From assembly GCF_003334405.1 (NCBI RefSeq), contig NZ_QOWM01000008.1: DNA of 64,000 bases; one strand, 5' to 3'. Of the stretch, positions 9,918-10,185 are shown in pieces (position 1 is the first letter of the stretch; every line of letters begins with the position of its first letter). The translations under genes were made by a program, and so were the position numbers. The notes below the pieces were generated by a model. The model did not search any database and was not told the origin of the DNA. It was given only the letters and a program-made list of their open reading frames with translations. The DNA is from Escherichia coli (lineage in GTDB: Bacteria > Pseudomonadota > Gammaproteobacteria > Enterobacterales > Enterobacteriaceae).

Positions 9918-10185
9918 AATACTCTCTCCTGAATTTATGATTCACGGAAGTAAGCTCTCTATAACTATAATAGCTAAGAATAAGCTTGGTGAAATTATTC
10001 CGTGAAATCTGCTCGCGCGCAGGGTTATATCACGCAGGTGATAATGACTTCCTGTTATATCGCTGATAATAATTTTATATCTTGAGAGTGTTAATAACAG
10101 GTAAATAGTCTTAATTATCAACCAGGAATCATCTTAGAGCGGATGATTTGCCAAACTGCAAATCATCCGTAGAGAAGGGAAATGG

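Follow-up and report, generated by a model that had tools for sequence, protein, structure and literature searches.

A hairpin downstream of yciT as the probable 3'-terminal stem-loop of yciT mRNA at the border of the osmB control region in Escherichia coli

Bacterial transcripts do not always end in a hairpin followed by a run of uridines. In Escherichia coli, stable stem-loops that lack a U-tract are found on Rho-dependent transcripts, where they fix the steady-state 3' end precisely and withstand PNPase and RNase II (Dar and Sorek, 2018, NAR 46:6797). Termination occurs further downstream, after which PNPase or RNase II shortens the RNA as far as the stem (Dar and Sorek, 2018). A later survey found such stem-loops at 3' ends made by both termination mechanisms. 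The element between yciT and osmB described here fits this class of U-tract-less 3' stem-loops, and Rho dependence and trimming would apply to it by analogy.

The element is located in a stretch of 64,000 nucleotides of E. coli DNA (RefSeq assembly GCF_003334405.1, contig NZ_QOWM01000008.1), referred to below as the window. An initial annotation made from the letters of the window had pointed out a perfect hairpin with a 12-bp stem between osmB and yciT and the absence of a T-tract beside it, and both observations are confirmed. The inverted repeat occupies positions 10140–10169, with a perfect stem of 12 bp and a loop of 6 nt, the arms CGGATGATTTGC (10140–10151) and GCAAATCATCCG (10158–10169) being 100% complementary, and the stem is AU-rich with 6 GC pairs out of 12. 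The tail of the hairpin carries two T among eight bases on the minus strand (CTCTAAGA) and one among eight on the plus strand (TAGAGAAG). Since yciT and osmB are both encoded on the minus strand, transcription of yciT places the hairpin at the tail of its mRNA. Along the transcribed strand, the yciT stop codon is followed by a pyrimidine-rich linker of 16 nt, the hairpin, a spacer of 222 nt and finally the ATG of osmB. The features of the locus in this order are:

10186..10935, minus strand: yciT CDS, a DeoR-type regulator, with its stop codon at 10188–10186 (ORF list; annotated as yciT in RefSeq E. coli genomes)
10170..10185, minus strand: linker of 16 nt, CCAUUUCCCUUCUCUA, pyrimidine-rich and G-free, different among Escherichia lineages (sequence)
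10158..10169, minus strand: 5' arm of the RNA hairpin as transcribed, CGGAUGAUUUGC (sequence and fold)
10152..10157, minus strand: 6-nt loop AGUUUG, which varies within E. coli and between species and differs in every Escherichia lineage
10140..10151, minus strand: 3' arm of the RNA hairpin, GCAAAUCAUCCG (sequence and fold)
10136, minus strand: 3' end of the steady-state yciT mRNA, ...CAUCCG-CUCU-3' (Term-seq, Adams et al., 2021; coordinate conversion)
10123..10136, minus strand: RcsB box of the upstream osmB promoter, TAAGATGATTCCTG, separate from the hairpin (consensus match and Salmonella orthology)
9954, minus strand: "orphan" Rho termination region in published data, 182 nt beyond the yciT 3' end (Adams et al., 2021)
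9917..9699, minus strand: osmB ORF (ORF list; RefSeq annotation of E. coli genomes)

A hairpin of this kind is rare by composition: the window contains two perfect hairpins with a stem of at least 12 bp, where a mean of 0.03 is expected from 200 dinucleotide-preserving shuffles of the window. The folding energy of the RNA is about −18 kcal/mol, and the folding z-score is −4.6 for the 111-nt context around the hairpin. E. coli K-12 MG1655 carries the identical sequence (a window position plus 1333411 gives the NC_000913.3 coordinate), which is found in 5421 of the 5426 complete E. coli genomes, with a median of one place per genome and at most two. Being single-copy in each E. coli genome, it does not belong to a REP-like repeat family. 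There is next to no chance that we are dealing with an accidental palindrome or a dispersed REP-like repeat copy without a specific role. Such a reading would accord with the Rfam search of 9500–11300, in which no family matched the hairpin region 10140–10169 at E-values up to 10, but it has to face the shuffle expectation of 0.03 together with the retention of the hairpin in 76 of 79 species and the transcript end that maps there. The yciT hairpin does resemble the REP/BIME stabilisers of mRNA 3' ends as an extragenic palindrome that would block 3' exonucleases; it differs from them by being single-copy, by lacking the REP consensus and by a sequence that turns over between genera.

Mapping of yciT transcript 3' ends had been named in the initial annotation as a way to examine the hairpin, and published Term-seq data place an end right behind the stem. 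The dominant yciT 3' end is MG1655 1343547(-), classed as "primary" (Adams et al., 2021, eLife 10:e62438, Supplementary file 1), and this coordinate equals position 10136 of the window, 4 nt past the base of the stem. Only two of the three condition tabs list it, with 107065 and 37489 reads (Adams et al., 2021); judged by their position in the file, these two appear to be LB at OD 0.4 and M63. The flank printed for 1343547(-), which reads ...GGCAAATCATCCGCTCT on one side of the end mark and AAGATGATTC on the other, agrees exactly with the window sequence. With the 3' end at 10136, no structured element follows the hairpin in the steady-state yciT mRNA.

It is quite likely that the hairpin is the stem-loop that defines the 3' end of the yciT mRNA, and we infer a protective role for it. 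RNA polymerase would transcribe yciT, the 16-nt linker and then the hairpin along the minus strand, and the steady-state transcript ends 4 nt past the stem, where the 12-bp helix is predicted to block 3'-to-5' exonucleases and thereby to set and stabilise the yciT 3' end. The same stem-loop would also delimit the yciT mRNA from the control region of osmB, whose RcsB box lies 3 nt further on. An RNA 3'-end stabiliser for yciT was one of two roles initially suggested for the palindrome, and it is this one that gains support, from the Term-seq end and from the family-wide presence of a hairpin whose sequence is not conserved.

How the end itself is produced is a separate question. The absence of a U-tract means that the hairpin is not a canonical intrinsic terminator. 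We give about even chances to a route in which polymerase passes the hairpin, is released by Rho in the AU-rich and mildly C-over-G spacer, and leaves an RNA that PNPase or RNase II would trim back to the stem; a quarter of the probability or slightly more goes to weak or factor-assisted termination at the hairpin itself, and the remainder to cleavage and trimming of yciT-osmB read-through transcripts. The yciT hairpin is similar to the class of Dar and Sorek (2018) in that a stable stem-loop stands directly before a precise mapped 3' end and just after the stop codon, in that U-rich tail and upstream A-tract are both absent, and in that its folding energy falls within the range of intrinsic terminators. 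It departs from that class in that the nearby bicyclomycin signal is ambiguous and in that the bias of C over G downstream is weak at yciT.

The bicyclomycin signal in question is a "Rho termination region" at MG1655 1343365(-), with a Rho score of 3.63 and p = 9.7e-9 (Adams et al., 2021, Supplementary file 2), and its distance of 182 nt from the mapped end is plausible for Rho release after loading in the spacer. On the other hand, its window position, 9954, is also where the proximal osmB promoter is predicted to start transcription, a consensus scan giving a −10 element TATAGT at 9969–9964, and bicyclomycin may therefore have induced osmB and not increased read-through from yciT. Bicyclomycin can raise sigma-S. 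Induction of osmB is an equally good reading of the signal at 9954. Within the 222 nt downstream of the hairpin, which are AU-rich, 40 C were counted against 37 G, and the segment from 25 to 75 nt has 8 C against 3 G. In the TERMITe supplements, where independent 3'-end and Rho calls were sought, an entry for yciT is absent.

The element was compared across Enterobacteriaceae with one genome per species, a set in which 80 yciT loci were recovered and 79 were usable. A hairpin of −9 kcal/mol or lower exists within the first 55 nt past the yciT stop in 76 of the 79 species; in the two 55-nt segments that follow, or in shuffled sequences, the count is only 13–17 of 79 (Wilcoxon p ~1e-14). The stems are non-homologous between genera, and about a dozen unrelated stem sequences occupy the one position among the 79 species. 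These include GATGATTTGCC in Escherichia, Citrobacter and Salmonella, GCGCCCG in Enterobacter and Lelliottia, AGCCCGC in Kosakonia and Phytobacter, CCCGATGC in Kluyvera, and GTCCGGTACG in Trabulsiella. Conservation of the arm sequence is confined to the group of Escherichia, Citrobacter and Salmonella. Position and fold are kept while the stem sequence is replaced, which speaks for a structural element in RNA and against a protein operator.

A U-poor tail is the usual state of these hairpins, since five or more T in the 8-nt tail occur in only 7 of the 74 unique ones. A T-run does follow the hairpin at the orthologous position in Cedecea (TTTTTCTC), Leclercia (GGGCGTTTTTT) and Kluyvera (GGGTTTTCC). 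The U-poor rule together with these three genera fits sites that switch between termination routes over evolutionary time.

The T-runs could also suggest that the conserved job of the hairpin is termination, and it is here that a non-canonical intrinsic terminator has to be weighed. According to this explanation, which we consider rather unlikely, the 12-bp hairpin itself releases polymerase at or just past the stem in the absence of a U-tract, weakly or with the assistance of a factor, perhaps NusA or NusG, and the mapped end, slight trimming aside, is where transcription truly terminates. An end only 4 nt past a very stable stem would agree with it, and the position of the top bicyclomycin effect, at the predicted osmB promoter start, could mean that little Rho-sensitive read-through occurs at the hairpin. 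As with canonical intrinsic terminators, the hairpin is placed directly 3' of the gene, the transcript ends a few nucleotides past the stem, and some genera have a true hairpin with a T-run at the orthologous position. Against this, canonical terminators release the transcript 7–9 nt past the stem inside the U-tract (Dar and Sorek, 2018, and established knowledge), while the yciT end is found at +4 within CUCU and not in a U-run. The RNA tail CUCUAAGA has two U among eight bases and contains C residues, which form strong RNA-DNA hybrids; the upstream flank CCCUUCUCUA is devoid of an A-tract, and the stem, besides being AU-rich, is unusually long compared with canonical intrinsic terminators. 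A consensus terminator scan makes no call at 10140–10169, and the same scan does call the yciH/osmB terminator at 9579–9604. At the family level, 67 of the 74 unique hairpins are U-poor, a pattern typical of the Rho-associated class.

Whether the conserved fold is that of the yciT-sense RNA was approached through strand asymmetry. With a strand-neutral definition of the stem, internal mismatches are 23 G.T against 9 A.C (binomial p = 0.02, uncorrected for phylogeny). A stability difference of at least 2 kcal/mol favours the yciT-sense RNA in 19 of the 74 unique hairpins and the antisense RNA in 5 of 74. One-sided stem changes in the Escherichia/Citrobacter/Salmonella clade comprise 13 G.U cells against 1 A.C. 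The strand preference is absent (16 against 16) when the best hairpin is chosen independently for each strand, and inside that clade, where most of the stem does not vary, covariation is no higher than in the shuffle controls. Taken together, the strand tests are suggestive of the yciT-sense RNA and not decisive.

Variation within E. coli is concentrated in the loop. A common variant alters the loop only (AGTTTG to TGTTTT), and among 8 diverse E. coli genomes three of the six loop positions are variable while the stem shows two changes, both at terminal pairs. The rest of the 268-nt spacer contains only 4 variable sites in these genomes, and the loop, 10152–10157, is thus a hot spot of polymorphism; a sample of 8 genomes is too small to reveal extra constraint on the stem. 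A natural disruption is seen in E. coli 23CRST031 (NZ_AP045800.1, 2207244–2207391), in which an IS1 inserted at the 3' end of yciT has eliminated the 5' arm of the hairpin, the 3' arm and the RcsB box being retained intact.

Downstream of the hairpin the type of conservation changes. Sequence conservation across the family starts directly past the hairpin (CTCTGAGAnnnTTCCGA...AATTAAGACTATTTAC), and the RcsB box begins 3 nt past the stem, its first base being the mapped yciT 3' end at 10136. This 14-mer fits the RcsB box TN(G/A)GAN4TC(T/C)NA except for its last base. In Salmonella, the osmB box TAAGACTTTTCTGA is bound by phosphorylated RcsB in EMSA and is located 215 nt upstream of the ATG (published Salmonella data). 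The box of the window is orthologous to the Salmonella one, and the spacing of 215 nt recurs in the Salmonella loci compared. An RcsB-type box is present downstream of the hairpin in at least 74 of the 79 species, usually by 3–20 nt, and a gene for an OsmB-like lipoprotein comes after yciT, within 700 nt of its stop, in 78 of 79. The exceptional arrangement is that of Intestinirhabdus, with the osmB-like gene about 590 nt downstream of yciT. In Intestinirhabdus alba, an insertion of about 330 nt separates the hairpin, which stands 9 nt past the yciT stop, from the RcsB box, which stands 218 nt before osmB; the inserted segment (positions 3290–3610 of our locus L024) is GC-rich. The RcsB box marks the start of osmB control, and the hairpin marks the boundary before the osmB region. 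The positions of the osmB promoters rest on the consensus scan and the Salmonella data.

Envelope-stress regulators had been proposed in the initial annotation as candidates for occupancy at the palindrome. A site for such a regulator does exist in the spacer, namely the RcsB box at 10136–10123, but the palindrome is not that site. The two elements share the spacer and are 3 nt apart; the box is a pseudo-palindrome of 14 bp with a family-conserved sequence, whereas the hairpin neither matches it nor is conserved in sequence. The heptamer GATGATT occurs on the minus strand both in the 5' arm of the hairpin (10161–10167) and in the RcsB box (10127–10133), which could allow a weak pairing of 7 bp between the 3' arm and the box in read-through RNA. 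This repetition is probably a coincidence, given that it is absent in Citrobacter and Salmonella. A roadblock by RcsB bound 3 nt downstream was also considered as a source of the mapped end and rejected, since the active site of polymerase would then stop inside the hairpin and not at +4.

The other role initially suggested for the palindrome, a DNA operator at which a dimeric transcription factor (YciT or a stress regulator) would control osmB or yciT, is very improbable. It draws on a perfect palindrome situated roughly 75–105 bp upstream of the predicted start of the distal osmB promoter, on arms conserved across Escherichia, Citrobacter and Salmonella, and on published data in which osmB is up 3.6-fold (log2 1.83) in a yciT deletion strain. 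In the same study, osmB is also up (log2 2.73) in the deletion of another regulator, and the effect on osmB is therefore not specific to yciT. Beyond the three genera the half-site is not conserved and the hairpin is, with unrelated stems taking its place elsewhere, and most changes in a single arm give G.U on the sense strand, so that the DNA loses its symmetry and the RNA stays paired. The insertion in Intestinirhabdus leaves the hairpin with yciT and away from the osmB promoter, and the validated regulator site of the region is the separate RcsB box. ChIP occupancy at the palindrome, which had been put forward as a further check, is not seen: none of the 49 published YciT ChIP-exo sites, YciT being the factor examined, falls in the yciT-osmB spacer under either coordinate version. 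The nearest of these sites, at 1344894–1344924 and assigned to gmr/pdeR, corresponds to window 11483–11513 or 13459–13489 depending on the coordinate version, which places it either within the 3' part of pdeR or immediately upstream of that gene.

As a 3'-terminal stem-loop of yciT mRNA, the hairpin is an ordinary element: its class is well described, and the yciT instance is catalogued in a published 3'-end map. What is gained is that an unannotated palindrome in a well-studied region of E. coli receives a role, the 3' end of the yciT mRNA, and a place relative to the RcsB box of osmB, with little beyond annotation. The case suggests that a strong hairpin just past a stop codon and lacking a T-tract should be read first as a transcript-end stem-loop and not as an operator. 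It also offers a clean small example of structure-only conservation, in which the place and the fold persist, the bases of the stem are exchanged and most tails contain few U. An sRNA or 3'-UTR-derived RNA was considered at this locus as well and set aside, since a RIL-seq-based sRNA prediction table includes yciT solely as a CDS node of low score.

A further idea, to which we assign a small probability, is that the U-less hairpin is a deliberately leaky boundary, with a read-through fraction that varies with Rho activity, growth phase or stress. If this were true, yciT transcription, reported to be favoured by sigma-S, would cross the RcsB box and both osmB promoters, and yciT would be coupled to the output of osmB by read-through or promoter interference. 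The order yciT, hairpin, RcsB box and osmB, kept across Enterobacteriaceae, would then be a functional unit and not mere adjacency. The conserved synteny, the rise of osmB in the yciT deletion and the bicyclomycin-sensitive signal in the spacer allow such a boundary and do not demand it.

Other hairpins of the window provide a comparison. Between the convergent genes yciH and osmB, positions 9579–9604 form a canonical bidirectional terminator with the core stem GCCACGGATATATCCGTGGC and T-runs on both strands. The second long perfect hairpin, 54858–54892, has a 16-bp stem (AATATGCCTGATGGTG-CAA-CACCATCAGGCATATT) and fills the 43-nt gap between the convergent ORFs 53284–54852 (plus strand) and 54896–55402 (minus strand); it looks like a shared bidirectional terminator. 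Finally, a 3.6-kb contig labelled as part of an Actinomycetes metagenome-assembled genome (JAEWQO010000093.1) encodes a YciT identical to that of the window and carries the same yciT-osmB spacer, and it is most likely E. coli contamination of the Actinomycetes bin.
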